A stretch of 64,000 nt of DNA from NCBI GenBank assembly GCA_964511375.1, contig CAZEEW010000004.1, positions 5,542 to 69,541 of the forward strand, written 5' to 3'. Both the position numbers and the translations under genes were made by a program. Source of the DNA: an uncultured Gammaproteobacteria bacterium (GTDB taxonomy: Bacteria; Patescibacteriota; Patescibacteriia; Magasanikbacterales; GWA2-37-8). Below, piece after piece: positions 12,274 through 62,269 of the stretch. The first letter of the stretch is position 1. The number at the start of each line of letters is the position of its first letter. A model generated the notes under the pieces. That model had not been told where the DNA came from. It searched no databases and worked only from the letters and a program-made list of their open reading frames with translations.

Positions 12274-12316
12274 AGACTCTTTTAGAAAGGTAAAATATCG
12301 TGTATAATAAGTAAGT

Positions 12317-14272
12317 ATGGTAGGATTTTACTCTAAAATATTGAAAAAAGCAATTGCTATTATAACCTTAGCCGTTTTTCTTGTTTTGCCGGTTATGACT
12401 TTGGCCAAGGTGCCAAATGATGCCAATTACCCCCTGCAGATGTCGTTTTGGGACAATGTTAATGCCCCTTTGGCTTGGGATTACTCTACTGGCTCAAGCG
12501 ACGTAGTAGTCGCTGTAATAGACAGCGGGGCAGATATACTGAATCCGGATTTAGTGACGAATATTTGGCAAAACCCGCGCGAGATAGCCGGGAATGGTAT
12601 TGACGATGACAATAATGGCTTTGTGGATGATATTAACGGTTGGAATTTCGTTGAGAACAATTCAGATATCCGTAATGCTATTCTTAATCGGAGTTCGGAT
12701 GAAGAAGCAGTGAGCCATGGTACTTTGGTGGCTGGATTAATTGGGGCGGTCGGAAACAACGGAAGAAATGGTACGGGTATTAATTGGCAGGTTAAGATTA
12801 TGCCTTTGCGTGCAATAGATAACTTGGGCTCAGGTTCTTATACAGATATTACCAGGGCAGTGGATTATGCTGTTCGAAACGGAGCCAGGGTAATAAGTAT
12901 GAGTTTTGTTGGAGAAAATAATGACCCAGTGTTACGAGATAGCTTGCGGAGTGCTTATGAAAAAGGCATTGTGATTGTTGCAGCGGCTGGAAATAACCGT
13001 GATGACACTTCTGTTAATCCTTATTACCCACTATGTTATGATGCCTATGATTCAGAAAATTGGATTTTGGGGGTAACCTCCATTAATAGTAATAATCGTT
13101 TAAGCAGCTTTGCTAATTATGGTAGGTGTGTAGATATAGCCGCACCCGGCGAACGTATTTACAGCACAGAGCATTATCTTCCTGAACAGGGATATAACCA
13201 AGAGTTTGGTGGCATGTGGCAAGGGACTTCTTTTGCTACACCAATTGTGGCGGGAACGGCGGCTTTGCTTAAAGCAACTCGTCCAGAGTGGAAAGCGAAA
13301 GAAATTATTAATCAAATATTACAGACTGCCCAAAATATTGACAATGTCAATACTTCTTTTGTTGGACAAATAGGCAGAGGTAAACTAAACGCCGGGACAG
13401 CGGTGCAGCAAGCGGCAGAAACGCGCATTACCAAAAAGCCAGCTCTTATTACCAACCAGGAGGGAACTTTAGTTTATGTGAAAGATAACAGCCTTATGGC
13501 TTTTAACACCGCTGGTGCTGAATCATCCTTGTTGGCACGCGTGCAAGATGGAAAATTAATAGATTGGGGTAATAATGAAGATGGTGGTTGGTCGTTGCTA
13601 ATTTACCGGGCACCATATTATTTTGTGCAAATAAGGGATAACGCTGGAGAATTTGTTACTGAATTTCCAGTAGGAGATGTTGACGAACTAAAAGCAAAAA
13701 AAGTAAATATCACTAGAATCGACGGCGCTTTTCGAGAGGAAGAACAACAGATAGTTGTAGCGGAAAACAAAAAAACTGCCACCGATATAGTTGTATTTAG
13801 TTTACAAGGTGAGGAAATAAATCGTTTTACTATTAATAAGAAATTGGATAATTGGAGTGTATATGGTAATTATGTTGCGACAGCACATTTTCAAACGGCT
13901 AATTTAATTTTAAGATTATATACTTTAGATGGTGAGTTAGTCGGGGAAAAGATTATTGCAAAAGCTTACGGGTTGGATGATCTAGATATAGGTATGCTCT
14001 GGGGAGGAGATAGCCCGCAAGTTGTCGCATTAGTTCGAAAAAGCCGTGACCGATCGAAATTAGAACGCACGGTTGTTGATTTGGGAAGCAATAGCACTCT
14101 GGTGCAGGGGATAAATAACCCTGGCACTAAGACTCGCTGGTATTTGGCCCTAACCGATATAGATGGGGATGGGCTGGACGATTATTTACCCTACCGCTTA
14201 ATTGGTGGAAAACACAATCTTTACTCAGGTAAAGGGGAACTATTGGCTACCTGGCAGTTGCCTAAATTATAG
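12317..14272 (+). CDS. secreted subtilisin-like serine peptidase (S8) with a ~270-aa C-terminal domain of unknown function
   Basis: Signal peptide. Catalytic triad motifs VAVIDSGAD, SHGTLVAGLIG and GTSFATPIVAG. Confidence 0.85.
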   Translation: MVGFYSKILKKAIAIITLAVFLVLPVMTLAKVPNDANYPLQMSFWDNVNAPLAWDYSTGSSDVVVAVIDSGADILNPDLVTNIWQNPREIAGNGIDDDNNGFVDDINGWNFVENNSDIRNAILNRSSDEEAVSHGTLVAGLIGAVGNNGRNGTGINWQVKIMPLRAIDNLGSGSYTDITRAVDYAVRNGARVISMSFVGENNDPVLRDSLRSAYEKGIVIVAAAGNNRDDTSVNPYYPLCYDAYDSENWILGVTSINSNNRLSSFANYGRCVDIAAPGERIYSTEHYLPEQGYNQEFGGMWQGTSFATPIVAGTAALLKATRPEWKAKEIINQILQTAQNIDNVNTSFVGQIGRGKLNAGTAVQQAAETRITKKPALITNQEGTLVYVKDNSLMAFNTAGAESSLLARVQDGKLIDWGNNEDGGWSLLIYRAPYYFVQIRDNAGEFVTEFPVGDVDELKAKKVNITRIDGAFREEEQQIVVAENKKTATDIVVFSLQGEEINRFTINKKLDNWSVYGNYVATAHFQTANLILRLYTLDGELVGEKIIAKAYGLDDLDIGMLWGGDSPQVVALVRKSRDRSKLERTVVDLGSNSTLVQGINNPGTKTRWYLALTDIDGDGLDDYLPYRLIGGKHNLYSGKGELLATWQLPKL

Positions 14273-23034: not shown

Positions 23035-24660
23035 CTACTGTTCTTTAAGGTCAATACCCTCCTGGTCGGTCTTAATGTTTGCAATTTTAAGCCATTTTTT
23101 ACGGAAAGCCTGGGCGAATTTAAGCATTTCTGGCAGACGGAAAATATAGCACAAGAGCAGATAAATGAAAAGCCCAGTCAAGGCTGCCACAAAACCTTGG
23201 CCAAAGATGCCCCAGAAGTAGTCTTGGTTAAAGATTTTGGCTAGAGGCGTCTTAATGTATTGCATCGCAAGAGCCATAGCGATAGCAGCTATGGAGATCC
23301 GGTATAAAGAAGACAAAAGCTTTCCTTCTTCGAGGTTGTGGATGGTAGTCTTTAAATAAATGAGAAGCAAACTTAAATTAACGATTGCACCGATTGAGGC
23401 GGCCAGGGCTAAACCAGCTACCCCTAACGGTTCCATTAATACCAGTGAAGCAATAATGTTAATTAGGGCGGCAAAGACACCAATGAAAAATGGTGTTTTC
23501 GTATTAGATAAGGCATAGAAAGCCCGGGCGAGGAGTGGAATGAGACTTTGGGCAAAAAGGCCCAAAGAAAAGAAGGCTAAAGCATCGGCGGTGTTAATGG
23601 TGGCAGTCCAGTCAAATTCACCGCTACCTAAAACAACGCGGACAATTTGAGCGCGGAGAATTAGAAATATTAAGCTAACAGGGATAATTAAAAATAGTAT
23701 TTGACGCATGGTATTGCCAAGACCAGCAATAAATTTTTCCTCGTTGCCTTCTGCTACACTCGCCGATAGAAGCGGGAAAGTAGCTAAGGCAAAAGAAATG
23801 CCAATTACGCCAATCGGCACCCACTGTAAGTTATCCGCATAATTATAAACTGCAATGCTACCTGCTGGTAATAATGAGGCCAGGATTGTAGTTACAAAAG
23901 TGTTTAAATTACTAACCGCCAAGCCAAGCGTGCGCGGTATCATGAGTTTACCAATTAGACGAGTATTTTTGTCTTTCCATTTGAATATTGGTTGCCAGCG
24001 GAAGCCAACTAAGTAAGCGCCATAAAATTGAAGACTAAAGTGAATCGCCGCGCCAATTACCACACCAATACCGAGTCCAACGGGGCCAAAGAATTTAGTT
24101 AAACCTGCTGCGCCAAAAATAATGCCGAGGTTGTAGAAGATGGGCGCAAAAGAATACAAAACAAAACGGCGTAACGACTGCAAAACTCCGCCTAAGACCA
24201 TGGAGAAACCTAAAAAGATCGGCGAGAGAAACATGACTCGGGTTAAGGTGATGGTCAGATTTAGGTTTTCTTGATTAAATCCAGGCGTAAGGAGGGGTAC
24301 TAGATAGGGAGCAAAAATAATTCCTAAGCCACATAAGACAACTAGAGCAATGGCGGCAATGTTTAAAACATTGTTGGCGAGGCGCCAGGCCTGACTTTTG
24401 TCCTTACCTTCTTCTAAGAATAGTTTGGTAAAAACGGGAATAAATCCTGCGGTCAAAGCACCGACAATTAAAAGGTTGTAAATCAAGTCAGGAATTTTGA
24501 AGGCAGCATAGTAGGCGTCAGTAACAGGTCCAGCCCCATAAAAATGGGCGATTATTCTGTCACGTAAAACACCAATAACTTTGTTTAACAAAGTTGCACC
24601 GCCAATTAATAAGGCGGCGCCGGTCGTTGAATTAGATTCAGAATTCAAAATTTTAAACAT
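23035..24660 (-). CDS. murJ: lipid II flippase MurJ (MviN)
   Basis: LLIGGATLLNKVIGVLRDRIIAHFYGAG...DAYYAAFKIPD. Fourteen predicted transmembrane helices. Confidence 0.85.
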   Translation of the reverse strand: MFKILNSESNSTTGAALLIGGATLLNKVIGVLRDRIIAHFYGAGPVTDAYYAAFKIPDLIYNLLIVGALTAGFIPVFTKLFLEEGKDKSQAWRLANNVLNIAAIALVVLCGLGIIFAPYLVPLLTPGFNQENLNLTITLTRVMFLSPIFLGFSMVLGGVLQSLRRFVLYSFAPIFYNLGIIFGAAGLTKFFGPVGLGIGVVIGAAIHFSLQFYGAYLVGFRWQPIFKWKDKNTRLIGKLMIPRTLGLAVSNLNTFVTTILASLLPAGSIAVYNYADNLQWVPIGVIGISFALATFPLLSASVAEGNEEKFIAGLGNTMRQILFLIIPVSLIFLILRAQIVRVVLGSGEFDWTATINTADALAFFSLGLFAQSLIPLLARAFYALSNTKTPFFIGVFAALINIIASLVLMEPLGVAGLALAASIGAIVNLSLLLIYLKTTIHNLEEGKLLSSLYRISIAAIAMALAMQYIKTPLAKIFNQDYFWGIFGQGFVAALTGLFIYLLLCYIFRLPEMLKFAQAFRKKWLKIANIKTDQEGIDLKEQ

Positions 24661-24663
24661 GTT

Positions 24664-25338
24664 TTACTGCGAGACATTAACAATCAGTGAGGCATAGTTT
24701 GTTCCTCGGCCGTTAACCGGGCCTTCAACATACATCGATCCACTGACATTGTCAGTTTGACGTTGGAAAGAAAATTGTTTGACAACTTTGTTTACGTTTT
24801 TTCCTTCACTTTCCGCTTCAATGTTAAAATTTTTCTTTTTTAGTTCTGTCATGTAGTAGTTAATAACAAAATTTGGCTCGGCGTTCATGTCTACCCACTT
24901 TATTTGCACCGTATCGCGATGATCACCCACTGGCTGAGTCAGAACATTGACAAAATCTTTAAATATACCCTCCGAATCTTCGGAGTGTTCGTTTTCGGTA
25001 TTTTGGTTGTTCACTAAAAGGGGAGAGAGAATCAATTTGGGAAAAAGGGCGGCGATCTCCACGCCACGATTTTTGTATTGTCCAGAAATAAAAGTAATCG
25101 ACTCGATGTTATCTGCATCGTAAACCGGGATATCTTTAGGGAAGTATTCCGGAACAGATTTTAGAGTTTGGGGGCCAGGACCGACCGCAAGTTTTAGGGC
25201 AATAATGGCACCAACGATAAAAATAACAACACAACCACAGCCAGATAGGCAGGTCCGTTTAAAGCCAGAGCGTTGCTTGGTTAGTTCTTCTAGAGGCGGT
25301 TCAACAATCTCGACGTTATCGATAACCGGTCGGCGCAT
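24664..25338 (-). CDS. membrane-anchored hypothetical protein, translationally coupled to murJ (4-nt gap)
   Basis: Single transmembrane helix (CVVIFIVGAIIALKLAV). No recognised domain. Confidence 0.45.
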   Translation of the reverse strand: MRRPVIDNVEIVEPPLEELTKQRSGFKRTCLSGCGCVVIFIVGAIIALKLAVGPGPQTLKSVPEYFPKDIPVYDADNIESITFISGQYKNRGVEIAALFPKLILSPLLVNNQNTENEHSEDSEGIFKDFVNVLTQPVGDHRDTVQIKWVDMNAEPNFVINYYMTELKKKNFNIEAESEGKNVNKVVKQFSFQRQTDNVSGSMYVEGPVNGRGTNYASLIVNVSQ

Positions 25339-25444
25339 AAATTAGACAGGTTTTAATACTTGTTTTTATACATCCATTCTAGCAGATTTTTTGAATTCTG
25401 ACTAGATATCACACACTTAAAATTCGGAAACAAAAACAGCCTTT

Positions 25445-26035
25445 AAACAAAGCTGCTTTTGAGGGATCTCGATGCGCCAGGGGCGCGCGTCGAGGGCGCC
25501 CCTCCTTGTATTTAGAAAGAACAGGTGGGGGACGAGCGACTCAGTTCGTCTCGTCCTTGGCGGGGGGTTGCGGAGCGGTCGTGCAGCAGTTGCTGGCCCT
25601 GATCAGGCCGAGCCTCTCGGCTTTCTGCCGCTGCTCTTCCGCATGCTCGCGGAAGCGGTGGTTCTCGGAGCGCAGCACTTCCGTGTGCTGGAAGTGCGAC
25701 CACACCAAGGCGGCCATGATCCGTCTCAGGTTGACCAGATACCGATCGGTCGCCCTGGAGCAGGAGTGGGCCATGCACGCGAACAGCTCGTTGACCTCGG
25801 TCAGCTCGTCGCCGAGCGCCTTCGGGACCTCGGTCCAGTCACTCTCTGGAGGCTCGCGGGGTGGGAGGATGGTGGTGGATCCGCTCAGTCGCCAGGCGTC
25901 CTTCCAGGGCTCAGAGCCCCTGCGAAGAACGTTGACGCCCACTCCCCCCACGACCAGCATCGTGTGGTACCAAAAGTTGGACTTGAACACTGCCCCTCAC
26001 TTTCCGTAAACACTCCCGTCCATCGGGATTGGAAT
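25445..26035. other. anomalous high-GC (~65%) block in a ~40% GC background; foreign-origin or chimeric segment
   Basis: Abrupt composition shift on both edges. Contains a minus-strand ORF whose codon third positions are about 88% G/C. Confidence 0.7.
25541..25990 (-). CDS. gene fragment of high-GC origin (hypothetical; weak resemblance to an IS4/IS5-type transposase C-terminus); likely truncated or non-functional
   Basis: Sampled codons have GC3 of about 15/17. Protein-like composition. A hairpin plus T-run lies downstream on the minus strand (~25428-25455). Confidence 0.35.
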   Translation of the reverse strand: MFKSNFWYHTMLVVGGVGVNVLRRGSEPWKDAWRLSGSTTILPPREPPESDWTEVPKALGDELTEVNELFACMAHSCSRATDRYLVNLRRIMAALVWSHFQHTEVLRSENHRFREHAEEQRQKAERLGLIRASNCCTTAPQPPAKDETN

Positions 26036-26103
26036 AAACTTAGCAGAAAACTGGATGTTTGTCTATGCTAGACATGTGGGGATATTTTTAAGTAGAAAAA
26101 GTA

Positions 26104-38300: not shown

Positions 38301-38402
38301 AGTGGAGTATATATTAACCTATTTCAACCAGGTACCGCAATAGAGAACAAAGACTAATTTGGGTATATCCTGTGTACAGGATTGGGGATTGGGGACAGGG
38401 CT

Positions 38403-38430
38403 TTGCCTTTCTTGGAATTTGGGATATAAT
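38403..38430 (+). promoter_or_regulatory. sigma-70-like promoter (TTGCCT-16-TATAAT), followed by an AGGAGA Shine-Dalgarno
   Basis: Read from the sequence. The ATG at 38447 lies 8 nt after the SD. Confidence 0.5.
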
Positions 38431-38446
38431 ACAGGAGAATTCGCCT

Positions 38447-40546
38447 ATGGAAAGAAGAAAAATAAAAGAACTGGGAGCGATTGTTTTTTTGGCTTCCTTT
38501 GCCTATTTTTTACTGACCATATATACCAACCTGGGTTTGGCCCTGGTTTTTTTATTCCTGTATTTTGGTTTAACTGGAAGATGGTACCGGGATTACTTAA
38601 TTAGCATTTTTCGCCTTGGCCGGTTGGGTACGACTTGGGTGGTTGGTGTTTTTTTAAGTTTGTTTGTTTTTGTTTCACTATCTAGCCCCTGGGTGTTGTT
38701 TTTTCGTTACACAGCCCCCGAGATTAGTGTGGTTTTTCTTTTGAGTGGCCTTTTGGCTTGGTATCTAAGAACTTATATTGTTAAGAAAGGAATATCACTA
38801 GAAAATAATATCTCTACTGAAAGCAACTCGTGGCAATTCATGCCTGGAAAGGTAATAAGCTTCTGGGTATATATTGTGGTTTTTGCTGTTGCAACTTATA
38901 TTTTGCAAAACCGACTTGGCGATGGAGTAGTGAATAGTCCGTGGCAAATAATACAAGAGGAATATATTTACGTTTACGCGTTGGCGACTTTTGTTTTGTG
39001 TTTAAATATTTTATCTAAATTACCATCACGGCAAGTTCTTTTTCTCCTCATTCTTCATACTTTTCTAACCGTTAGCTATCTACCTTTAACTCATGTTTTA
39101 ATCTATGGCGCCGACTCCTGGCGACACATGGCGACGGAGGCGCAGATTCTCGAGTCCGGACGGATTGCGCTGAAAGATTTTGGGAGTGGCTTTAATGCGA
39201 TCGTGAACGCTTTAAATCCCGGTCGTTTCTCTTACGCCTGGTTTTGGGGGCTGGGGGTAGTAGTAGCCAAACTCACGGGTGGAACTTTAATTGAGGTAAA
39301 TAAATGGTTAGGACCATTGCTTTTCACAATTGGTTTCCCGGTTCTGCTTTTTGCTTTCTTGAAAAGTTGGTTTAAAGAAGAAAGATTGCCCTTGCTCCTA
39401 GTTTGGTTATCTCTTATTTTTTTCGCTTTTCAAGTCGGTGGGGCGTTTACTTTACCTGTCAATACTGGATTTTTATTTTTTTTGGTTTTACTGATTTTAC
39501 TCACAAAACATTTAGACAACCCGCAGCCGGGACGGAAATGGTTTTTGGGCTTGCTCGGTTTCTTTAGCCTTTTTGGATATTTGGTGTACTTTATTTTATT
39601 CTTTTTAGCTTGGGGTATAATGGTCCTTACGAAAAAGAGCTGGAACGCTGGCAAAAAAAACGTGTTAATAATAGTGGGTGCGGGTATTTTAATTCCGTTT
39701 TTTGAGTTAGTGTTTAATTACAGCGATGTTTCGAAAATCAATTTATTAGGACAGATAAAACAATTGGTTGGTAATTTTACAGCTTATTACTTGGCAACTG
39801 GTCCTCGGCAGCACGACATTTTGACTGGCAACATTCTTTTTAACCAGACACCAAGCTACGCCTATGTGGGAAATTTTTTATTAGAACACAAACCATGGTT
39901 GGTAGCGGTCGCAATACTAGTTTGGGCCGGTGTAGCTTGGGGAGTTAGAGAATATTTTAGAAAGAAAGAAAGTCGTGGGATCGGAATATTGTTTTTAGGG
40001 GTGTTTGTAAGTTTGCTGATCGGAAGATACTTTTTAGTGGGTGAGCAAATTTTGTCTCGGCGCTTAGATTTAGTATTTGCACTCGGTGCAGTGTTTTTTA
40101 TCGGGTTCACTGTGAAGAGGATTTTTTCTCGTTACCAGATTGCCGAAAAAGCAACATCGAGACTGCTTGCAATTTTAGTAGTATTTATTTTTTCTTTGGC
40201 TATTACGGCGTCATATACCCTGGGACCAGATACTAATACTGTATCCTTGACCGGGTATCGCAATATGGAAGTAGTTTGGGACCAGGAAAAGGAAAACGAG
40301 AAACACTGTGTTATAGCCGATACTTATCCTTTGCTAGCCTTAGAATTCATTTCTAAAAAAGAAATTGTGGGCGGGGGATTTCCAATGAACGCGTATTTTG
40401 CCCAGCTAGAACGCGTGGCGCTATGGCAGGAGATTAAAAACAAAGGCTATTTAACCAAAGAAGAACTAGAGAAAGCCAAGGAACTAACCGGAGCAGGAGA
40501 GTGTCATATTGTCGGTGGTTCGCTTGATCCATGGTTTGGCAAGTAG
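38447..40546 (+). CDS. large polytopic membrane protein, possibly a GT-C-type (ArnT/PMT-like) glycosyltransferase
   Basis: At least 12 hydrophobic helices and a C-terminal soluble domain. Start re-picked at MERRKIKE with promoter and SD. Family call is low confidence. Confidence 0.4.
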   Translation: MERRKIKELGAIVFLASFAYFLLTIYTNLGLALVFLFLYFGLTGRWYRDYLISIFRLGRLGTTWVVGVFLSLFVFVSLSSPWVLFFRYTAPEISVVFLLSGLLAWYLRTYIVKKGISLENNISTESNSWQFMPGKVISFWVYIVVFAVATYILQNRLGDGVVNSPWQIIQEEYIYVYALATFVLCLNILSKLPSRQVLFLLILHTFLTVSYLPLTHVLIYGADSWRHMATEAQILESGRIALKDFGSGFNAIVNALNPGRFSYAWFWGLGVVVAKLTGGTLIEVNKWLGPLLFTIGFPVLLFAFLKSWFKEERLPLLLVWLSLIFFAFQVGGAFTLPVNTGFLFFLVLLILLTKHLDNPQPGRKWFLGLLGFFSLFGYLVYFILFFLAWGIMVLTKKSWNAGKKNVLIIVGAGILIPFFELVFNYSDVSKINLLGQIKQLVGNFTAYYLATGPRQHDILTGNILFNQTPSYAYVGNFLLEHKPWLVAVAILVWAGVAWGVREYFRKKESRGIGILFLGVFVSLLIGRYFLVGEQILSRRLDLVFALGAVFFIGFTVKRIFSRYQIAEKATSRLLAILVVFIFSLAITASYTLGPDTNTVSLTGYRNMEVVWDQEKENEKHCVIADTYPLLALEFISKKEIVGGGFPMNAYFAQLERVALWQEIKNKGYLTKEELEKAKELTGAGECHIVGGSLDPWFGK

Positions 40547-40616: not shown

Positions 40617-43043
40617 ATGTTTGGAAGAAAACTGCCAGAAAATCCAATTGGCATCAAAGGAGAAGAATTAAAACGATACGAACCAGCATTGGAAGTGCTA
40701 AAGCAGGAGCGGGCTGTGGTTAAGGAATTGGCCGAGGTGTATCCGCTTTACCAGGAACTTCTTAAGAACAACACAATAAAATTTGTTGCCGAACAGGGGA
40801 ACGAGGCGACCGAGCGGACAGTTTCGGTTTTGGGCGAGGAATGGGAAGATTGGTTGCGGGATGATTATCTTCGATTGGATGCCTGGTCTAGAAAGTATCT
40901 TTTGGAAATGGATCCCGGTTTAGATAGTGTGCCAGCCTTTAAAGAATTAGAGCGGATGTCTGTGCATCTGGAGCAATTGAAAGAACTAGCGGCAGATGAC
41001 GCTTCCAAGAAGCGCGAAGGGGTAGGTAGCCGGTTAAGAGAAAATTTGAGGAAACCGAACGGGGGCCAAGCTGGCCACGAAGTTATTGTTTATCCCACGG
41101 CAGATGAGCACTTAGAGGCTTCAAGGTGGGATGACTTTCTAGCTTTTTTATCTAGTAATAAGCAAATTAAAGACGGGAAGGATGTTGAATCAAGGCCTAT
41201 CTGGTGGAGAAGGGGACTAAGGAAGGCGGGGAAAGACTATAAAAAAGAAAGACTGCCGCAAGAACAATTGCGCCAAGCAGTAGCAGAACATATTACTAAA
41301 ATTGCCACTGAACAACGCACTGACATTGAAAGAAAAAATCTTTTAGAGCGAATCCAACAATTTCGGAAGTTGATTCGGATACTTAAGCGCTGGCAGGAGG
41401 TTTTATTCACTGATCAATTGCAAGATTCTTCGTTAAGAGGAGAAAGCCCCTATACTCCTTCACAAGTTAGTATAGTCAGAGAGTGTAACAGAGAACTAAT
41501 GGACCACTTACGAACGCGTGTTAATACTTTTGTGCGTCCGATAGAAGCTAACGAGAGAGGGCCTTTGCCGATCGATAACACTGTCGTCGAATTTGCCGAA
41601 GAGCTCGATGCAAAAGTAAGAGATAGTTTGGATATTCGAGAAAAGATTCGTGTTTTAAAACAGGACTTAGAGGAGTTAGCACATGGTTTAAATTTAGAAG
41701 TGCAAGAGTTAAAACAAACAGCTGAAGGTTTAGTTTGGACGTACCAGGGTTTAAGTGAAGGAGAGCAAGATTTGACAGAAAGAAAAGACAAATTGAAGCC
41801 TTTAGTGACTGGTATTGGCCAGGCACTGGAAAAAGTAGTTAGTGCTTATGGAGACGAGAAGAGTGGAGTGGTGGGCGTCCTGGACCGTCTTATGAAGATT
41901 TTGTCTGAAGCGGAAAAGCGTAATGGTCAAGCCTTTAGGCAAGTTGAGGCAATGGCCAGAGAATTGGAGGGAGCCAATCTCCGCTCTTTATATTTTCAAG
42001 AATTTGATATCACCCTACAGGGATTGCGTCAAGCGATTAGTGACGCACGGGAGTTTATCCGAGACAGAGAACAAAGGCGGTTAGCAGAAAAAGTGTTGCC
42101 AGCGCCAATGACCAAAGTTATAGACGCGGATATGGTTGATGTACGGCCTAATAGTCGTGAGGGCATACTAGATCCCGGAGAGGTCTATACAAATAACGAG
42201 GAATTACGTGTGGCGTTAGAAGACAGAGGTGGAGAATTTGGTTTGTACGCACCCTTAGTTGATTATGCGATGTTGCCACCGGAATTTTCCAAAGAGCATT
42301 TGCGGATTTTTAAAAATTATCTTGGTAAATTAGATGCATCCAGAGTACCACAAGTAAAAAATTGGGAACAGTATTTTGAAATGATGTACCCCCGATACCA
42401 AAGACCAGAAGACACACAAAGAAATTTAGTTGCTCATCGTCCAGACTGGTGGTATGAACAAGCAGATGGGAGTGATTTTTATGATAAAGAAACTTGGGGT
42501 GAGGCTTACAAACGGTCGATACAAGAAGAGTCTGAGAAATTGAGTGATAGGGTATTTCTTACTGAGAAAATACAAAAACCAAATTATACCGATGGGAGCA
42601 AACAGTATGGATCTAAAGACCATCAAGACGCGCCGCAAGACGTGCTTTTACCAATCATTCAAGAAGTATTAGGGCCAGACCATAATCGGTTTGGTAATAC
42701 GTGGGATGAAGTCAACTGGGTAGCGGAAAAAGTAAAAGAGAAAATCATCGCTGAATTGCGTTCGGCAGGGCTACCTGTCCCGAAGTTTGATATTGTGATA
42801 ACACCTGCGATTATTTCTAATTTAGAAATGATATCCAGAAATAGAGAAAATTCACAGACTAATACTTATGAGTGGACTTCAACTCCATTATTGAAAAAAG
42901 ATGGTGGTGATTACGGTTCTCGCCTGGTGGTTGGCCGCTCGGGGAAAGGTGGTGCCGGTTATATCGGCAACCTTCAACACAACGCTAGGTCAGACTCGTT
43001 GGGGTTCCGCCTCTCAGCGACGTTCAATAATCATAAACCTTAA
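40617..43043 (+). CDS. large (808-aa) soluble charged protein of unknown function
   Basis: Long uninterrupted ORF. No transmembrane or signal segment. No recognisable catalytic motif. Confidence 0.6.
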   Translation: MFGRKLPENPIGIKGEELKRYEPALEVLKQERAVVKELAEVYPLYQELLKNNTIKFVAEQGNEATERTVSVLGEEWEDWLRDDYLRLDAWSRKYLLEMDPGLDSVPAFKELERMSVHLEQLKELAADDASKKREGVGSRLRENLRKPNGGQAGHEVIVYPTADEHLEASRWDDFLAFLSSNKQIKDGKDVESRPIWWRRGLRKAGKDYKKERLPQEQLRQAVAEHITKIATEQRTDIERKNLLERIQQFRKLIRILKRWQEVLFTDQLQDSSLRGESPYTPSQVSIVRECNRELMDHLRTRVNTFVRPIEANERGPLPIDNTVVEFAEELDAKVRDSLDIREKIRVLKQDLEELAHGLNLEVQELKQTAEGLVWTYQGLSEGEQDLTERKDKLKPLVTGIGQALEKVVSAYGDEKSGVVGVLDRLMKILSEAEKRNGQAFRQVEAMARELEGANLRSLYFQEFDITLQGLRQAISDAREFIRDREQRRLAEKVLPAPMTKVIDADMVDVRPNSREGILDPGEVYTNNEELRVALEDRGGEFGLYAPLVDYAMLPPEFSKEHLRIFKNYLGKLDASRVPQVKNWEQYFEMMYPRYQRPEDTQRNLVAHRPDWWYEQADGSDFYDKETWGEAYKRSIQEESEKLSDRVFLTEKIQKPNYTDGSKQYGSKDHQDAPQDVLLPIIQEVLGPDHNRFGNTWDEVNWVAEKVKEKIIAELRSAGLPVPKFDIVITPAIISNLEMISRNRENSQTNTYEWTSTPLLKKDGGDYGSRLVVGRSGKGGAGYIGNLQHNARSDSLGFRLSATFNNHKP

Positions 43044-46977: not shown

Positions 46978-46990
46978 TGTTCAATTAGGT

Positions 46991-47018
46991 TTAAATATTT
47001 AGGATTTTTGTGTATAAT
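46991..47018 (+). promoter_or_regulatory. promoter candidate (TTAAAT-16-TgTATAAT) implying a leaderless or near-leaderless start at 47026
   Basis: The -10 ends 7 nt before the ATG at 47026. Confidence 0.35.
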
Positions 47019-47025
47019 ATATACC

Positions 47026-49041
47026 ATGGTAGATAATAACGAGGAACAAAAACCAGTGGACTCTTTTAAAACTGATCCCAACGTCAATTTTTTTGGTTTA
47101 ACAAATTTTCGGAATCAGTATCGGAAATTTGGCATTAAACTAGATGATCGTCGCCGGCACATGTACATTGTGGGTAAAACGGGCATGGGAAAAACTACCA
47201 TGCTTGAGAACATGGTTTTAAACGATATCTATGCCGGACATGGTGTTGGGTATATTGATCCGCATGGTGATACAGCAGAGAAGATCATTGACTTTATTCC
47301 GTCTTGGCGGATGAATGACGTGGTGTACTTTAATCCGGCGGATTTAGATTATCCGATTGGTTTTAATATTTTAGAAACCATTAATGCTTCGCAAAAACAC
47401 CTTGTAGCGTCGGGTCTGATGGGTGTGTTTAAAAAGATTTGGCCAGATGTTTGGAGCTCAAGAATGGAGTATATCTTAAACAATACCATTTTAGCTTTGT
47501 TAGATTTTCCGGGTACGACTTTATTAGGCATTAATCGAATGTTGGCAGATGAAGATTACCGGCGTCGAGTAGTAAAAGCAGTTAAAGATCCGGTGGTTAA
47601 ATCTTTCTGGCAAACGGAGTTTGCATCCTATAGTGAAAAGTACCAACAAGAAGCAGTCGCACCTATCCAGAATAAAATTGGTCAGTTCTTGTCTGCTTCA
47701 GTTATACGTAACATTGTGGCTCAGGTAAAGTCCCGTATTAATATACGGGAGATAATGGATAACAAGAAAATTTTTATCATGAACTTGTCAAAAGGTAGAA
47801 TCGGTGAAGACAATTCTCGTCTTTTGGGAGGCATGCTCATCACTAAACTCCAACTATCTGCTATGGAACGTGTCGATATGCCAGAACTAGATCGCAAAGA
47901 TTTCTTCCTGTATGTTGATGAGTTTCAAAATTTTGCAACCGAAAGTTTTGCTAATATCTTGTCCGAAGCGCGAAAGTACCGTTTAGGATTGGTCTTGGCT
48001 CACCAGTACATGGAACAGTTAGATGAAAAAGTACTGGCGGCGGTTATCGGTAACGTTGGTACCATGATTACATTCCGTGTTGGTTCAACGGATGCGGAAA
48101 TACTGGCCAAGGAATTTGCACCGATTTTTGTGGAAGAGAATTTAGTAAATTTACCGAAGTTTAACGTTTATTTAAAACTCATGATTGATGGTGTAGCCTC
48201 GCGACCGTTTAGTGCTCTGGCGATGCCACCAATTAAATTGTCTACCACTGGCAGCGCTGATAAAGTCATTCGTGTTTCGAGAGAACGTTATGCTGTGACC
48301 AGAGACAAGATTGAAGACAAGATTGCACGCTGGAGTGGAATGGTTATTCTAGATGAAGAGGGAAATCCGACTACCGATGATCCGGATGAGGAATTTGATG
48401 ATGGACCAAAGAAAGAAGAAACCGTTCCAACTAAGAGCCCGCCAGTAGCTAAAAAGAACGAGTCTAAAAAAGAAGAAACGTTCAAGCCGATTGTAGTTGA
48501 GTCGGCTAAAGAAGAGAGTAGCTTACCGGTAGCGGAAGAAATATTTAACATACTAATGGCAGAAGATAAGCCAGTACAGTTGCCTAACTTAGAAAGGGCA
48601 ATGATTGATAAACCGAAAGATGATCAAGCAAAGCCACCACGGAGGATAAATAATCCTGTACAGCAACCATCTCTAACTAGTAATCCAGATATTGTTAAGA
48701 AACGTAAGAGAAAAAGAAAAAAGAAAAGTGGGGGAGGGGGCGGGCAAGGCTTTACTAATTCAGAGCCGGTTTTACTGGTAAAACCAGAAACCAAAGGTAT
48801 TTCTTTGAACGATCTTAAGCCTCTGCCTAAAAACGAAGAAAAACCACAGCATGTTACTCGAGAGGAAGATTTAAATAGTACAGCAAAACAAGAGGAAACA
48901 CTAGGATTTTTGAAGTCTAGTCAAGACAGCAAATTTGAACCGCTAAAATTGAGCGAGCAAAACGATCCAAATATTCATGATAATAGTGGTCCAAAGACCG
49001 TACCTAAGGGTAAAATTGAAGCAATCAATGATGATAAATAG
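47026..49041 (+). CDS. VirD4/TraD-like (type IV coupling-protein-type) P-loop ATPase with a ~250-aa K/E-rich disordered C-terminal tail
   Basis: Walker A VGKTGMGKTT. Walker B FFLYVDEFQNF. No N-terminal transmembrane segment. Tail carries KKRKRKRKKKSGGGGGQG. Alternative TTG start at 47008. Confidence 0.6.
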   Translation: MVDNNEEQKPVDSFKTDPNVNFFGLTNFRNQYRKFGIKLDDRRRHMYIVGKTGMGKTTMLENMVLNDIYAGHGVGYIDPHGDTAEKIIDFIPSWRMNDVVYFNPADLDYPIGFNILETINASQKHLVASGLMGVFKKIWPDVWSSRMEYILNNTILALLDFPGTTLLGINRMLADEDYRRRVVKAVKDPVVKSFWQTEFASYSEKYQQEAVAPIQNKIGQFLSASVIRNIVAQVKSRINIREIMDNKKIFIMNLSKGRIGEDNSRLLGGMLITKLQLSAMERVDMPELDRKDFFLYVDEFQNFATESFANILSEARKYRLGLVLAHQYMEQLDEKVLAAVIGNVGTMITFRVGSTDAEILAKEFAPIFVEENLVNLPKFNVYLKLMIDGVASRPFSALAMPPIKLSTTGSADKVIRVSRERYAVTRDKIEDKIARWSGMVILDEEGNPTTDDPDEEFDDGPKKEETVPTKSPPVAKKNESKKEETFKPIVVESAKEESSLPVAEEIFNILMAEDKPVQLPNLERAMIDKPKDDQAKPPRRINNPVQQPSLTSNPDIVKKRKRKRKKKSGGGGGQGFTNSEPVLLVKPETKGISLNDLKPLPKNEEKPQHVTREEDLNSTAKQEETLGFLKSSQDSKFEPLKLSEQNDPNIHDNSGPKTVPKGKIEAINDDK

Positions 49042-49053
49042 AGCCTGGGGCCA

Positions 49054-49082
49054 TTGACAAAATATGAAAAATAGGGTATAAT
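49054..49082 (+). promoter_or_regulatory. consensus sigma-70 promoter (TTGACA-17-TATAAT) with a ~140-nt leader before the zinc-ribbon gene
   Basis: Perfect hexamers and spacing read from the sequence. Confidence 0.6.
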
Positions 49083-49223
49083 GATACCTGTAAATTGGGC
49101 AACTAAAAAACGTCAAAAAGGCCTTTTCCAAAAGGATACAATTAGATGGTGTTAGTTCCCAGTCGGTCGATTAATTAAGTTTTTTCTCAAAAACCATTTT
49201 GGGAACAAAGTATAGGAAAATTT

Positions 49224-49535
49224 ATGCCTTTTGGAACTGATAGGCAAATGTATTCCGTAGACTTGTCTTGTGCTAAGTGTGGCGCTCACATCAGTGAACT
49301 CCCATTTCAGCCAAGTGGTGACAGGCCAGTGTATTGCTCTGATTGCAATCGCGCCTTCCGCCAGAGCCGTGCTCCAAGAAATGGTGGTGGTCGTACAAAC
49401 GGCCCTCGCCAGATGTTTCAGGTCAATTTGACCTGTGCAGACTGCGGAACTGCCATCAACGAGCTTCCTTTCCAACCAGATGGAAGCAAGCCAGTTTACT
49501 GCCGCACCTGCCTTATGGCAAAACGTGCTGCGTAA
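49224..49535 (+). CDS. tandem-duplicated C4 zinc-ribbon protein (two CxxC-x17-20-CxxC modules)
   Basis: Internal repeat VDLSCAKCGAHISELPFQPSGDRPVYCSDC / VNLTCADCGTAINELPFQPDGSKPVYCRTC. Confidence 0.6.
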   Translation: MPFGTDRQMYSVDLSCAKCGAHISELPFQPSGDRPVYCSDCNRAFRQSRAPRNGGGRTNGPRQMFQVNLTCADCGTAINELPFQPDGSKPVYCRTCLMAKRAA

Positions 49536-49549
49536 TTACTACAAGCTTA

Positions 49550-49588
49550 AAACTCCCTCTGACATCTAGTCGGAGGGTTTTTTATTTT
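49550..49588 (+). terminator. rho-independent terminator after the zinc-ribbon gene
   Basis: TCCCTCTGAC-loop-GTCGGAGGG stem followed by a T-run. Confidence 0.6.
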
Positions 49589-54255: not shown

Positions 54256-56106
54256 ATGTTAAGCTCTCAAGAATTACGTCAAAAATATTTAGATTTTTTT
54301 AAGAGTAAGGGACATACCATAATCCCTTCGGCTTCTTTAATCCCAGAAAATGACCCAACAGTATTGTTTACTACCGCTGGCATGCATCCACTGGTGCCGT
54401 ATTTGCTTGGTGAAAAACATGCCGGAGGTACAAGACTCGCCAATGTCCAGAAATGCGTTCGCACACAAGACATTGATGAGGTGGGAGATAACCGGCATCA
54501 AACCTTTTTTGAAATGCTAGGTAACTGGTCACTTGGGGATTACTTTAAGAAAGAAGCGATTGAGTGGAGTTACGAATTTTTAACTTCAAAAGAATGGCTA
54601 GGTTTAGACGCGAAGAAATTGGCGGTATCCGTGTTCGTTGGAGATGATGATGCACCGCGCGACGAAGAATCGGCTAATATTTGGAAATCCTTGGGTATGC
54701 CGGAAGAGAGGATCGCGTATTTGCCTAAGAAAAATAACTGGTGGGGTCCAGCTGGACAAACCGGACCGTGTGGACCAGATACAGAGATGTTTTACTGGAA
54801 AGGAGATACTGAATTTCCACCTGATGGTAGTAACCCGGGTAACGATGAAGATCATTGGCTGGAAATCTGGAACGATGTATTCATGCAATATTTTAAAAAA
54901 GAAGACGGTACTTACGAGCCTTTGAAACAACAAAATGTCGATACAGGCATGGGTTTAGAGAGAACGCTTATGGTTTTGAATGGTTTCGCTGATACTTTTC
55001 AAGTAGATACTTTCTGGCCGCTAATATTAAAATTACAAAGCATTAGCGGTCACGAATATGTTGAGGGTGGTGAAGTAACTACTTCCATGAGAATTATCGC
55101 TGACCATATTCGCACTGCGACTATGATCATGGGGGATGATCGTGGTGTGGCACCGTCTAATGTTGATCAAGGCTACATTGTCCGTCGTTTAATCCGTCGG
55201 GCAGTTCGCCACGGACGACTATTGGGAATTCAGGAAAATTTTTGTTCGGAAATTTCTCGTACCGTAATTAATATTTTTAAAGATGTTTATCCTGAAGTGG
55301 GTCGGAACGAAGAGTTCATGCTACGCGAGATGGCTGCTGAAGAAAGTAAGTTTAGAAATACTATTGAGCAAGGATTGAAAGAATTCGAAAAATTAATTAA
55401 TGGTTACAGAATCGCCTTTGAGAAAACTGGTAATAATATTACCGAGATTCCTGGTAAGCAGTCTTTTAAATTGTATGACACCTTTGGTTTCCCCTTAGAA
55501 ATGACCCAAGAATTGGCTCGGGAAAACGGATTGACTGTTGACGTCAATGGTTTTGAAGAGGCATTTAAAGCTCACCAAGATTTGTCTCGTGCGGGTGCTG
55601 AGCAAAAGTTTAAAGGTGGTTTAGCAGACACAAGTGAAATGTCGACTAAGTACCATACTGCGACTCATTTATTGCATGCGGCCCTGAGAAAGGTGCTCGG
55701 CACCCATGTTGAGCAGCGCGGTAGTAATATTACAGCTGAACGACTTCGTTTTGACTTTTCTCATCCTGAAAAGTTAACGGATGAACAAAAGAAACAAGTA
55801 GAAGATTTAGTTAATGCTGCAATTCAGAAAGATTATCCAGTTAGTTTTTCCGAAATGACCGTGGCCGAAGCTAAGAATGGGGGAGCGATGGGTTTGTTTG
55901 AAGATAAATATGGTGCTAAGGTGAAAGTATATAGCATTGGTGATCCGAGCCAGCTACCAGCGGCTGATCCTAATTCACCAACCTTTAGCAAAGAAATCTG
56001 TGGCGGGCCACACGTTGAACATACGGGAGTAATTGGACGCTTTAAGATTTCTAAAGAAGAGGCCTGTAGTGCTGGTATCCGACGCATTAAAGCGATTGTT
56101 GAATAA
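54256..56106 (+). CDS. alaS: alanine--tRNA ligase, short form (catalytic + editing domains; no C-Ala/DHHA1 domain)
   Basis: N-terminal class II motifs (LFTTAGM). Editing-domain HTATHLLHAAL and CGGPHV motifs. Only 616 aa. Confidence 0.9.
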   Translation: MLSSQELRQKYLDFFKSKGHTIIPSASLIPENDPTVLFTTAGMHPLVPYLLGEKHAGGTRLANVQKCVRTQDIDEVGDNRHQTFFEMLGNWSLGDYFKKEAIEWSYEFLTSKEWLGLDAKKLAVSVFVGDDDAPRDEESANIWKSLGMPEERIAYLPKKNNWWGPAGQTGPCGPDTEMFYWKGDTEFPPDGSNPGNDEDHWLEIWNDVFMQYFKKEDGTYEPLKQQNVDTGMGLERTLMVLNGFADTFQVDTFWPLILKLQSISGHEYVEGGEVTTSMRIIADHIRTATMIMGDDRGVAPSNVDQGYIVRRLIRRAVRHGRLLGIQENFCSEISRTVINIFKDVYPEVGRNEEFMLREMAAEESKFRNTIEQGLKEFEKLINGYRIAFEKTGNNITEIPGKQSFKLYDTFGFPLEMTQELARENGLTVDVNGFEEAFKAHQDLSRAGAEQKFKGGLADTSEMSTKYHTATHLLHAALRKVLGTHVEQRGSNITAERLRFDFSHPEKLTDEQKKQVEDLVNAAIQKDYPVSFSEMTVAEAKNGGAMGLFEDKYGAKVKVYSIGDPSQLPAADPNSPTFSKEICGGPHVEHTGVIGRFKISKEEACSAGIRRIKAIVE

Positions 56107-61438: not shown

Positions 61439-62269
61439 ATGGCTTTAAAAATTATGCGTTCATCATCCAAGGAATTTAAACCGCGAGTAAACATGTTGGT
61501 ATATGGACATGGTGGAGTGGGTAAAACAACTTTTGCCGCTTCCGCTCCCAAACCGATCTTTGCGGATTGTGAAGGCGGCACAAATTATTTTGGCCGGCGG
61601 GGGATAGAAGTTGATGTGGCGAGAATTTTAACCTGGAAGGACATGGAAGAGTTTTATCTTATGATCAAAGACAGTGACTACGAGACTATTATTATTGATC
61701 CAGCGAATGAAGCCTTAGAGAAGTTGATTACCCACCTTAAGGAGACCGGTAATTATACTAACAAGGCCGAAGGTTTGACCCTACAGGGTTGGGGAGTGGC
61801 GAAAGATAAAATGCGTTCATTTCTAAAAGCCATGCGTGATTTAGATAAACATATTGTTATTATTGCACATGTGGAAGAAAAGCAAGATGAAGGCCAAGTA
61901 CTTAAAAAGCGTCCTAAGCTGCAAGCTAACTTATCCCAAGAATTAATCGACATGATGGATATTGTTGCTTACATGCAAGTAATTAAAACTATTGACGGGG
62001 GAGTGAAGCGAATTTTACGGGTTCAACCAGAGAGTGATGTATACGAGGCAAAAGATCGGACTGGTGTGCTCGGAACAGTTATCGAGCCGGACTTTGAGAA
62101 GATCGTTGAAGCGGTGGTGGAGAACAAACAATTTGCTTGGACAAAGGAATTAGATGTACGAACTAGAGAAAACCTTCAGGAATTTGAAAGTGGACTAGAA
62201 ATTAAGAAGTTTGGTGATGTCGAAAAACAGGAAACGAAAAAGGCGAAAGAAAAACAAAAGGCGGACTAG
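61439..62269 (+). CDS. phage-type AAA_24 family ATPase (Sak4-like recombination/annealing-associated ATPase)
   Basis: N-terminal Walker A MLVYGHGGVGKTTFA followed by KPIFADCEGG, matching the AAA_24 pattern. ~250-aa size. Lys-rich C-terminus. Start could instead be 61454. Confidence 0.65.
   Translation: MALKIMRSSSKEFKPRVNMLVYGHGGVGKTTFAASAPKPIFADCEGGTNYFGRRGIEVDVARILTWKDMEEFYLMIKDSDYETIIIDPANEALEKLITHLKETGNYTNKAEGLTLQGWGVAKDKMRSFLKAMRDLDKHIVIIAHVEEKQDEGQVLKKRPKLQANLSQELIDMMDIVAYMQVIKTIDGGVKRILRVQPESDVYEAKDRTGVLGTVIEPDFEKIVEAVVENKQFAWTKELDVRTRENLQEFESGLEIKKFGDVEKQETKKAKEKQKAD

Follow-up and report, generated by a model that had tools for sequence, protein, structure and literature searches.

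A soluble coupling-type ATPase gene

The window analyzed here is a 64,000-nucleotide stretch of contig CAZEEW010000004.1 and is part of a Candidate Phyla Radiation (CPR; Magasanikbacteria-like) chromosome. [quoted passage not shown] This gene is probably the soluble motor half of a type IV secretion system (T4SS) coupling ATPase, split in CPR bacteria from its membrane-anchor half and kept as a chromosomal core gene. The features of the gene and its product are listed below.

46990-47018, + strand: promoter-like site with -35 box TTTAAA, a 17-nt spacer and -10 box TATAAT (47013-47018)
47026-49041, + strand: coding sequence of the short-form, soluble T4CP-type ATPase; 671 aa plus stop, no internal stops
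47083-48345, + strand: folded ATPase core (aa 20-440), with an N-terminal beta-hairpin, a RecA-like nucleotide-binding domain (NBD) and an inserted all-alpha domain, as modeled by AlphaFold2 (AF2)
47173-47199, + strand: Walker A motif (P-loop) GKTGMGKTT (aa 50-58)
47386-47760, + strand: all-alpha domain inserted between the two Walker motifs (aa ~121-245); the model shows helices H121-138 through H240-245
47908-47934, + strand: Walker B motif LYVDEFQNF (aa 295-303)
48346-49038, + strand: C-terminal tail (aa 441-671, ~230 aa), by composition a disordered linker with conserved short motifs
48346-48405, + strand: acidic patch ILDEEGNPTTDDPDEEFDDG directly after the core (aa 441-460)
48697-48750, + strand: polybasic run KKRKRKRKKK (aa 558-567) followed by Gly-rich SGGGGGQG (aa 568-575)
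48769-48816, + strand: conserved island VLLVKPETKGISLNDL (aa 582-597), consensus V-L-L-V-D-P-x-x-K-G-I-S-L-x-x-L
49003-49032, + strand: C-terminal peptide PKGKIEAIND (aa 660-669), family consensus P-G-Q-h-h-K-h-D

The ATG at 47026 was chosen as the start over an upstream TTG at 47008, and a public protein (P0001) is an exact match to the 671-aa product. The first-pass annotation of this DNA had called the protein VirD4/TraD-like on the basis of its two Walker motifs, A and B. Both motifs were confirmed in an alignment of 108 family members, where their columns are invariant or nearly so: G50, K51, G53, G55 and K56 of Walker A and D298, E299, F300, Q301 and F303 of Walker B do not vary. The family assignment held as well. 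Two Pfam families of coupling proteins scored above their cutoffs, PF10412 TrwB_AAD_bind (42.7 bits against 20.5, aa 40-355) and PF12696 TraG-D_C (23.4 bits against 22), and FtsK_SpoIIIE (PF01580) gave no match in the ATPase at E<=0.01. The NCBIfam equivalogs TraD, TrbC, CD1115 and CedD all fell far below cutoff in a profile scan of the protein, the best scores being 45.5 bits for SXT_TraD (cutoff 366) and 35.8 bits for CD1115 (cutoff 250). Sequence searches of the PDB matched TrwB and DotL only.

The AF2 model of the core was built from the 108-sequence alignment, in which short forms such as this protein are mixed with the longer forms described below. It reached a predicted local distance difference test (pLDDT) score of 91.2 and a predicted template modeling (pTM) score of 0.89, and replaced an earlier model from 27 close full-length homologues (pLDDT 45), which was discarded. 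When the core was compared with the PDB using Foldseek, TrwBdeltaN70 ranked first (E 4e-13, template modeling score 0.62-0.67 over ~412 aligned columns), followed by Cag-beta (8dol) and DotL (6sz9), and then by HerA and DndH-C. By Pfam and structural alignment, the all-alpha domain of TrwB is the positional counterpart of the all-alpha insertion in our ATPase. Given the Pfam matches, the fold ranking and the TrwB-like insertion, the core is almost certainly a genuine VirD4/TrwB-type coupling ATPase.

No 19-residue window of the ATPase is hydrophobic enough for a transmembrane (TM) helix, since the Kyte-Doolittle maximum is 1.39 and lies within the core beta-sheet. Walker A is found at about residue 48 in 80 complete orthologues, which leaves no room for an N-terminal transmembrane domain (TMD) across this set. 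The polypeptide therefore carries no membrane anchor, as had been seen at first pass.

The ATPase gene is a core gene that is passed on vertically, and the housekeeping block in which it sits is conserved. Pfam was run on 43 ORFs of the window. These include the 46 listed ORFs with 150 aa or more, apart from three that were judged to be overlapping or alternate-frame calls. The functions recognized were housekeeping only: DnaJ, an ECF-type sigma factor, an EPSP-synthase-fold (MurA-like) enzyme, CtpA, Era, PyrG, RecJ, LepA, MurJ, RsmH, ClpB, RecR, DnaB, HIT, NUDIX, DUF2207, AMMECR1, Udk, a peroxiredoxin, FKBP, MnmA, DUF4153, AlaRS, S11, S4 and RpoA. Rfam and tRNA scans of the window returned no matches, and no integrase, transposase or repeats were found flanking the ATPase gene, whose G+C content (0.40-0.41) matches that of the window.

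At least 8000 close homologues of the ATPase were found. Every named match is from Patescibacteria, mostly Magasanikbacteria, and the named homologues are annotated as 'type IV secretion system DNA-binding domain-containing protein'. A HMMER search of 1.84 billion representatives (50% clustering) returned 6,646 at E<=1e-30. Synteny was compared across 85 related loci, made up of long contigs and 80 GTDB species loci. The conserved block begins with ClpB, an MraY-like protein, DUF192, RecR(-), DnaB(-), a ~700-aa membrane protein, HIT, NUDIX and (AMMECR1), and continues through the ATPase, a (zf_Tbcl_2 protein), MnmA, AlaRS and InfA to the L36-S13-S11-S4-RpoA-L17 operon. MnmA lies downstream of the ATPase in 48/85 loci, many of the loci being incomplete. 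The ATPase ORF is intact in 85/85 loci (80 of them complete at the C-terminal end), with invariant catalytic residues. Its core is 60-85% identical across the clade and reaches 95% identity to the nearest orthologue; for the named orthologues tested, identity is 84-95% in the core and 25-42% in the tail.

Separation of the motor from its anchor

Long forms with 850-1130 aa account for half of the top representatives and are found in sister CPR lineages. They consist of one N-terminal TM helix, a ~380-aa domain, the ATPase core and a tail. The ~380-aa domain carries the precomputed annotation PF26449/DUF8128. Over ~420 aa, the core of our ATPase is 50-58% identical to those of 65 CPR long-form representatives. 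A hidden Markov model (HMM) of DUF8128 was built from 70 CPR long forms, and outside CPR it matches gp156 of Bacillus phage G (E 2.8e-35) as well as a T4CP from a plasmid of the actinobacterium Embleya, in its N-terminus (E 2.7e-14). The Embleya gene, on plasmid NZ_CP108778, belongs to a monoderm conjugation cluster; its neighbors on either side encode a VirB4-like ATP-binding protein and a replication-relaxation protein (relaxase), and PrgI/VirB3 and NlpC/P60 are also encoded there. In phage G, gp156 comes after the 'VirB-like' gp155; it corresponds to phrog_5156, to which our ATPase has a PHROG match of 212 bits, and it is the best viral structural match to the ATPase core (TMq 0.82). The core is 32% identical to the Embleya T4CP and 28% identical to gp156. 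Since DUF8128 is found in the T4CPs of CPR bacteria, the Embleya cluster and phage G, a TM helix followed by DUF8128 and the ATPase is an established T4CP architecture of monoderm-type systems.

The DUF8128 HMM detected the missing half as a gene of its own in relatives of the window. In 32/85 loci, a stand-alone TM-DUF8128 ORF of 442-590 aa precedes the short ATPase gene, and its ending, '...PPxNLP', coincides exactly with the linker between the domains of the long form. In 29 of these 32 loci, the DUF8128 ORF abuts the ATPase gene with a gap of typically -4 to +30 nt; the distance is 5-9 kb in the other three (L043, L045 and L051). Because relatives encode the anchor as a separate TM-DUF8128 gene, we consider it very likely that the lineage of this ATPase arose by fission of a long-form DUF8128-T4CP gene at the linker. 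The first-pass annotation was thus right that the anchor is absent from the polypeptide, but this half was not simply lost, as it persists as a separate gene in relatives. Where the halves are still adjacent, in Uhr- and Falkowbacteria-type genomes, they are probably translationally coupled. At seven junctions (L056, L057, L063, L067, L074, L077 and L081), DUF8128 and the ATPase are in the same frame with a single stop codon (TGA, TAA or TAG) between them, and low-level readthrough there would restore the fused long form. Stop-codon recoding at these junctions was rejected because all three stop codons are present.

In other genomes, the two halves are far apart. A stand-alone DUF8128 gene was linked to both OZ246405.1 (L044) and WJJZ01000004.1 (L051). 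In OZ246405.1, the DUF8128 gene (P0499) follows secA-secD-secF at ~965 kb and the ATPase gene is at ~1,037 kb, ~72 kb away. Starting from the anchor gene instead, enough downstream sequence for a count was available at 55 Magasanik-type metagenome loci. The ATPase is adjacent to DUF8128 in 0/55 and 6-7 kb away in 4, and secD/secF is directly upstream of DUF8128 in 43 of the 51 that remain. In a rough neighbor-joining tree rooted on the Embleya protein, most short forms group in one block. The simplest reading is that the halves were later dispersed in the Magasanikbacteria-type lineage and that both were kept. The arrangement by the sec genes is consistent in detail, with the stand-alone TM-DUF8128 gene directly 3' of secA-secD-secF on the same strand and a ~50-aa ORF before it (L092 3798-11431; L094 2338-11401; 43/51 of L095-L174). 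The CPR long forms of L086 and L088 also neighbor secDF.

Two large ORFs of the window were considered as the split-off anchor and rejected, as neither has similarity to DUF8128 by BLAST or HMM. One encodes a 724-aa protein (38372-40546), which is an unrelated polytopic membrane protein; the other encodes an 808-aa protein (40617-43043), which is soluble and absent from the 85 loci.

Several further observations concern the long forms and their relatives. Tandem pairs of DUF8128-ATPase paralogues are frequent among CPR long forms, and one member of the pair has the more divergent core (L086 6851-12988; L088 5373-13543). A ~170-aa ORF lies between the paralogues, in L088 together with a Sigma70_r4/HARE-HTH gene, and a Sigma70_r4 gene precedes the single long form of L087. 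In L055, a third, par1-like copy (11974-14208) immediately follows the short form. The gp155-gp156 region of phage G (L091 3268-7410) pairs a DUF8128-T4CP-like ATPase (phrog_5156) with a VirB4-like protein. SPO1-like and other Bacillus phages (H11-H25) also encode a DUF8128-T4CP-like ATPase, in several cases misannotated as 'lipid A export/MsbA-like'. Three non-CPR proteins from high-G+C sequences (P0204, P0221 and P0264) are ~1,200 aa long and contain two tandem ATPase cores with 35-40% identity; P0264 adds an N-terminal TM segment and a C-terminal extension. These three gave the strongest matches to PADLOC mad8, up to 120 bits, which hints at a defense-related branch.

Unlinking of the ATPase gene is accompanied by a particular promoter layout. 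In the window, 7 nt lie between the end of the -10 box (47013-47018) and the ATG of the ATPase, and there is no Shine-Dalgarno sequence. Of 54 loci in which DUF8128 is not linked to the ATPase gene, 29 have a -10 box (TATAAT, TATACT or TACAAT) that ends 4-10 nt before the ATG and is often preceded by TG, and 3 have a Shine-Dalgarno-like sequence upstream of the unlinked gene. Only 1/29 bicistronic DUF8128-ATPase loci has this -10-to-ATG geometry. These patterns are consistent with unlinked copies having a promoter placed for a leaderless mRNA. A leaderless transcript had already been proposed at first pass from the promoter geometry, and the recurrence of the spacing across unlinked loci provides comparative support for it.

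The tail of the ATPase also differs between linked and unlinked forms. It is rich in K, E and P (14/12/11%), varies from 105 to 435 aa among 80 orthologues and is barely alignable, with 41% identity to the nearest orthologue compared to 95% for the core. The first-pass description of a long, disordered tail with a poly-K/poly-G run was borne out, except that the tail is ~230 aa rather than ~250 aa and is not featureless, as it contains short conserved islands. Orthologues at 75% identity have an equivalent polybasic/Gly run, so the run is not a sequencing artefact. The VLLVxPxxKGISLxxL (GISL) island follows about 10-15 residues after the polybasic run, glycines often come directly after the run, and the run is N-terminal to GISL in 85/87 cases. 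The frequencies of the four tail motifs are given below for four groups of sequences, with the polybasic run scored as at least 6 K/R in 10 residues and the C-terminal peptide scored by a crude regular expression.

Long forms: acidic patch 10%, polybasic run 15%, GISL 1%, C-terminal peptide 23%
Adjacent split forms: acidic patch 27%, polybasic run 65%, GISL 12%, C-terminal peptide 27%
Dispersed split forms: acidic patch 67%, polybasic run 83%, GISL 0%, C-terminal peptide 54%
Window-type orthologues: acidic patch 90%, polybasic run 40%, GISL 80%, C-terminal peptide 77%

The frequency of tail motifs climbs with separation from the anchor. This agrees with a model in which the tail assumed the role of tethering or docking after its covalent connection to the anchor had gone. 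In T4CPs such as TraD and DotL, extended C-terminal regions recruit partners, and T4CP C-terminal domains are typically acidic (PMC7434980).

Proposed role and alternatives

The explanation that we favor overall, with some confidence, is that the ATPase is the cytoplasmic motor subunit of a split T4CP. In the ABY1-type CPR clade that includes the window, the long gene was very probably cut exactly at the interdomain linker. In Magasanikbacteria-type genomes, the anchor gene now lies 3' of secA-secD-secF, and the ATPase gene precedes mnmA-alaS and the S13-S11-S4-rpoA operon. The tail of the ATPase gained the acidic patch, the polybasic run, the VLLVxPxxKGISL island and the C-terminal PGQ-h-h-K-h-D peptide. 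The ATPase may form an ATP-driven hexameric ring like TrwB, which could be recruited to the membrane in trans by the separate DUF8128 subunit, by the tail, or by both; in the tail route, the polybasic run would contact anionic lipids and the short motifs would dock on a partner. The motor would then feed a substrate, protein or nucleic acid, to a relaxase-less CPR T4SS encoded elsewhere. That the anchor is still supplied in trans in this genome appears likely to us. Whether the ATPase acts as the coupling motor of the CPR T4SS is close to an even question, and we lean slightly against it. A more specific picture, which we regard as speculative and rather unlikely, is that this CPR clade runs a two-part, dispersed core machine in which a TM-DUF8128 receptor encoded by secA-secDF works with a free hexameric motor whose tail is a regulated tether. 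This machine would have abandoned conjugation. Its role would be to move the macromolecules on which these epibionts depend, nucleic acid or protein taken from the host, by way of the relaxase-less T4SS or some other conduit.

A number of results weigh against a split coupling motor at this locus. The DUF8128 HMM had no match in the ATPase or anywhere else in the 64-kb window, and no window-type contigs were among the 120 DUF8128 matches listed or the 80 metagenome loci. As the first-pass annotation had said, there are no adjacent T4SS or conjugation genes: Pfam found no VirB4, VirB6 or relaxase in the 43 scanned ORFs. Likewise, no association with VirB4 or a relaxase was seen in the Pfam-annotated loci L002-L005. 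The neighbor-joining tree is crude, and the gradient of tail motifs is not corrected for phylogeny. That the protein forms a hexamer, hydrolyzes ATP, is recruited to the membrane and interacts with DUF8128 is inferred. The literature adds to these points. According to the passages found in Quinonero-Coronel et al. 2025 (PMC12102498), only 148 of 5,713 VirD4-type homologues, from 2,918 Patescibacteria genomes, are near virB4. [quoted passage not shown]

Exaptation is the alternative that we take most seriously, although we judge it unlikely. Here the ATPase would be a housekeeping translocase that is independent of any T4SS and works on nucleic acid that belongs to the cell or is entering it, for example in chromosome segregation or resolution, in the handling of competence DNA, or in RNA or DNA import. 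The first-pass annotation had raised DNA uptake or partition as putative roles. The polybasic tail would bind nucleic acid and the other motifs would bind a non-T4SS partner. The position of the gene beside replication, translation and tRNA-modification genes and its very high conservation agree with such a role, as do the distance from virB4 in nearly all Patescibacteria, the dispensability of the ML1 homologue and the authors' own suggestion (as given in the passages of PMC12102498), non-specific DNA binding by T4CPs (PMC7434980) and the gain of the polybasic run in split forms. However, housekeeping synteny in tiny genomes is weak functional evidence. The TM-DUF8128 half is kept as a separate conserved gene in the clade, which argues for a membrane-associated role, and no FtsK-gamma or other sequence-reading domain was found in the ATPase by Pfam. 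The location of that DUF8128 gene suggests another function, in which the DUF8128 subunit and the ATPase would work with SecA/SecDF in envelope biogenesis and not with a T4SS. Synteny alone is the basis for this Sec link: the stand-alone DUF8128 gene is directly 3' of secD/secF on the same strand in 43/51 loci and CPR long forms neighbor secDF. We find it very unlikely, as DUF8128-T4CPs outside CPR adjoin VirB4-like ATPases and a relaxase instead of Sec genes, and in the window no sec gene is linked to that of the ATPase.

The two other explanations have still less to recommend them. The suggestion of the first-pass annotation that the gene could be a relic of a mobile element is contradicted by our data. 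A decaying remnant of a conjugative or mobile element might be expected from a family that derives from conjugation machinery and has no T4SS or relaxase genes nearby, but the gene has a fixed housekeeping position and synteny, matching G+C, and no flanking integrase, transposase or repeats. In addition, its core is 84-95% identical to named orthologues (95% to the nearest), its catalytic residues are invariant and 85/85 ORFs are intact, so we discount this origin almost entirely. An anti-phage defense ATPase, with a mad8/HerA-like motor, is hardly more credible. PADLOC gave a match of 59 bits to mad8 and at most 28 bits to HerA, non-CPR relatives reach 120 bits on mad8, and HerA-type defense complexes are among the lower Foldseek matches. 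However, the mad8 match is partial and weaker than the matches to T4CPs, the neighborhood lacks nuclease, Sir2 or methylase partners, and it is a conserved housekeeping setting, not a variable defense island. Both the scores and the surroundings of the gene led us to reject the defense reading.

A large share of bacterial diversity belongs to the Patescibacteria (CPR). Our analysis indicates that their very abundant 'orphan' VirD4 homologues are bona fide T4CP motors and that they derive from a DUF8128-containing monoderm T4CP. In one major clade, the anchor gene and the motor gene are separate and both retained, and the tail of the motor gained ordered motifs at the time of the split. The uncharacterized DUF8128 gains a context as the module found at the N-terminus of a T4CP lineage that occurs in CPR, Actinobacteria and Bacillus jumbo phages. 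The split forms could also serve as a natural experiment on what the T4CP membrane domain contributes beyond anchoring. Finally, they offer testable handles on what energizes or feeds the CPR T4SS, namely a binder of the tail peptide, DUF8128 as a receptor, and docking on VirB4/VirB6. The relaxase-less CPR T4SS is essential for epibiotic growth in the sole system tested.

Neighboring features and comparison with known systems

Several neighbors of the ATPase gene merit a brief description. A sigma-70 consensus promoter, TTGACA-17-TATAAT (12/12), begins 13 nt past the ATPase stop (region 49054-49577, + strand) and is followed by a ~140-nt untranslated stretch, the zf_Tbcl_2 gene and a terminator-like hairpin (49555-49577). 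The zf_Tbcl_2 protein (49224-49535, + strand) has 103 aa and two treble-clef zinc fingers. Since its gene comes after the ATPase in 26/85 loci, it is a possible candidate partner. Upstream, the 808-aa ORF (40617-43043, + strand) lies between the 724-aa membrane protein and HIT. Its product is highly charged and has no Pfam or PHROG match, and with no homologue in the 85 related loci it looks like a lineage-specific insertion. The 724-aa polytopic membrane protein (38372-40546, + strand) has ~14 hydrophobic segments and no Pfam match; its gene is syntenic in 24/85 loci, where it is divergent from dnaB.

Other observations concern the rest of the window. An AAA_24 ATPase gene (61439-62269, + strand) lies just upstream of a polysaccharide-flippase gene. 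This domain is, we presume, typical of phage Sak4-like recombination proteins. S9 is directly followed by the flippase gene in L002-L004, so the AAA_24 gene in the window may be a small insertion. AlaRS (54256-56106, + strand) and its equivalents in L002-L005 are short (603-636 aa); they end right after tRNA_SAD without the usual C-terminal region, consistently among these CPR genomes and the window. Local G+C rises to 0.475 at 24001-26000, compared to ~0.40 for the window, over a patch that spans a 224-aa ORF without a Pfam match (24664-25338, - strand) and a 199-aa ORF (25472-26071, + strand). Many of the Patescibacteria metagenome-assembled genomes that serve as GTDB representatives in our set (L006-L084), clearly Patescibacteria from their genes and nearest labelled relatives, are titled 'uncultured Gammaproteobacteria bacterium', which is probably a mislabel from bulk submission.

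The gene family itself, its anchor-less architecture, and the abundance of CPR VirD4 homologues far from virB4 are already known. T4CPs without a TMD are one of five recognized architectures, subclass iii of Llosa and Alkorta (cited in PMC7431656 and PMC7434980), and some of them pair with a small membrane protein, as in TraJ/TraI of pIP501 (PMC7431656, PMC7434980). As both the family and the TMD-less architecture are published, neither is new. Judging from the passages of PMC12102498 that we located, our ATPase almost certainly belongs to the protein set of that study, which also reports that ABY1 genomes have virB4 loci, often with comF/recG/radA. The passages found there by term contain no DUF8128, two-gene split, dispersal, synteny, tail motifs or leaderless promoter, and no mention of DUF8128 was found in the literature searched. 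We came across no account of the DUF8128 module, of how the gene was split and its halves scattered, of the conserved gene order, of the tail motifs or of the leaderless promoter that unlinked copies have.

The ATPase shares its fold, a RecA-like NBD with an all-alpha insertion and Walker A/B motifs, with TrwB (R388)/VirD4, Cag-beta and DotL. A C-terminal extension rich in acidic residues is also a feature of several T4CPs of the TrwB/VirD4 type (PMC7434980). In contrast to that type, our protein is only ~14-17% identical in sequence, lacks the N-terminal two-helix TMD, and has a long tail with polybasic and other islands. Its gene is a chromosomal core gene rather than part of a plasmid or an integrative conjugative element, and it is not beside a relaxase or T4SS. 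FtsK/SpoIIIE and HerA belong to the same superfamily of ASCE P-loop ring translocases, with a template modeling score of ~0.5 for HerA and weak DUF87 matches in some homologues. However, the ATPase has neither the gamma domain of FtsK nor the HAS-barrel of HerA, it does have the all-alpha insertion typical of T4CPs, and T4CPs rank first in the fold comparison.

The closest relatives of a different architecture are the long-form DUF8128-T4CPs, such as those of Berkelbacteria (CP011213), Embleya and phage G (gp156), which share the homologous core and a disordered C-terminal tail. Unlike them, the ATPase has no TM helix or DUF8128, and long forms seldom carry the islands seen in its tail. VirB4-like genes adjoin the genes of Embleya and phage G, but not the ATPase gene in the window.

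The closest parallel in organization is the TraJ/TraI pair of pIP501. The two are not the same system: the partner in relatives of our ATPase is a TM-DUF8128 protein, the split-off N-terminal half of a long T4CP, in contrast to TraI, and the genes of the window lineage are dispersed in a relaxase-poor chromosomal CPR setting with no tra operon. A tblastn search of plasmids with the DUF8128 protein found no relative on Inc18-type plasmids, the only match being a long form or pseudogene on a Priestia megaplasmid. Nevertheless, the traI/traJ arrangement is comparable to the membrane-protein gene that lies upstream of the ATPase in 32/85 loci and abuts it in most of them. Like our ATPase, the pIP501 protein is a soluble VirD4-family motor whose contact with the membrane is thought to come from a separate protein.

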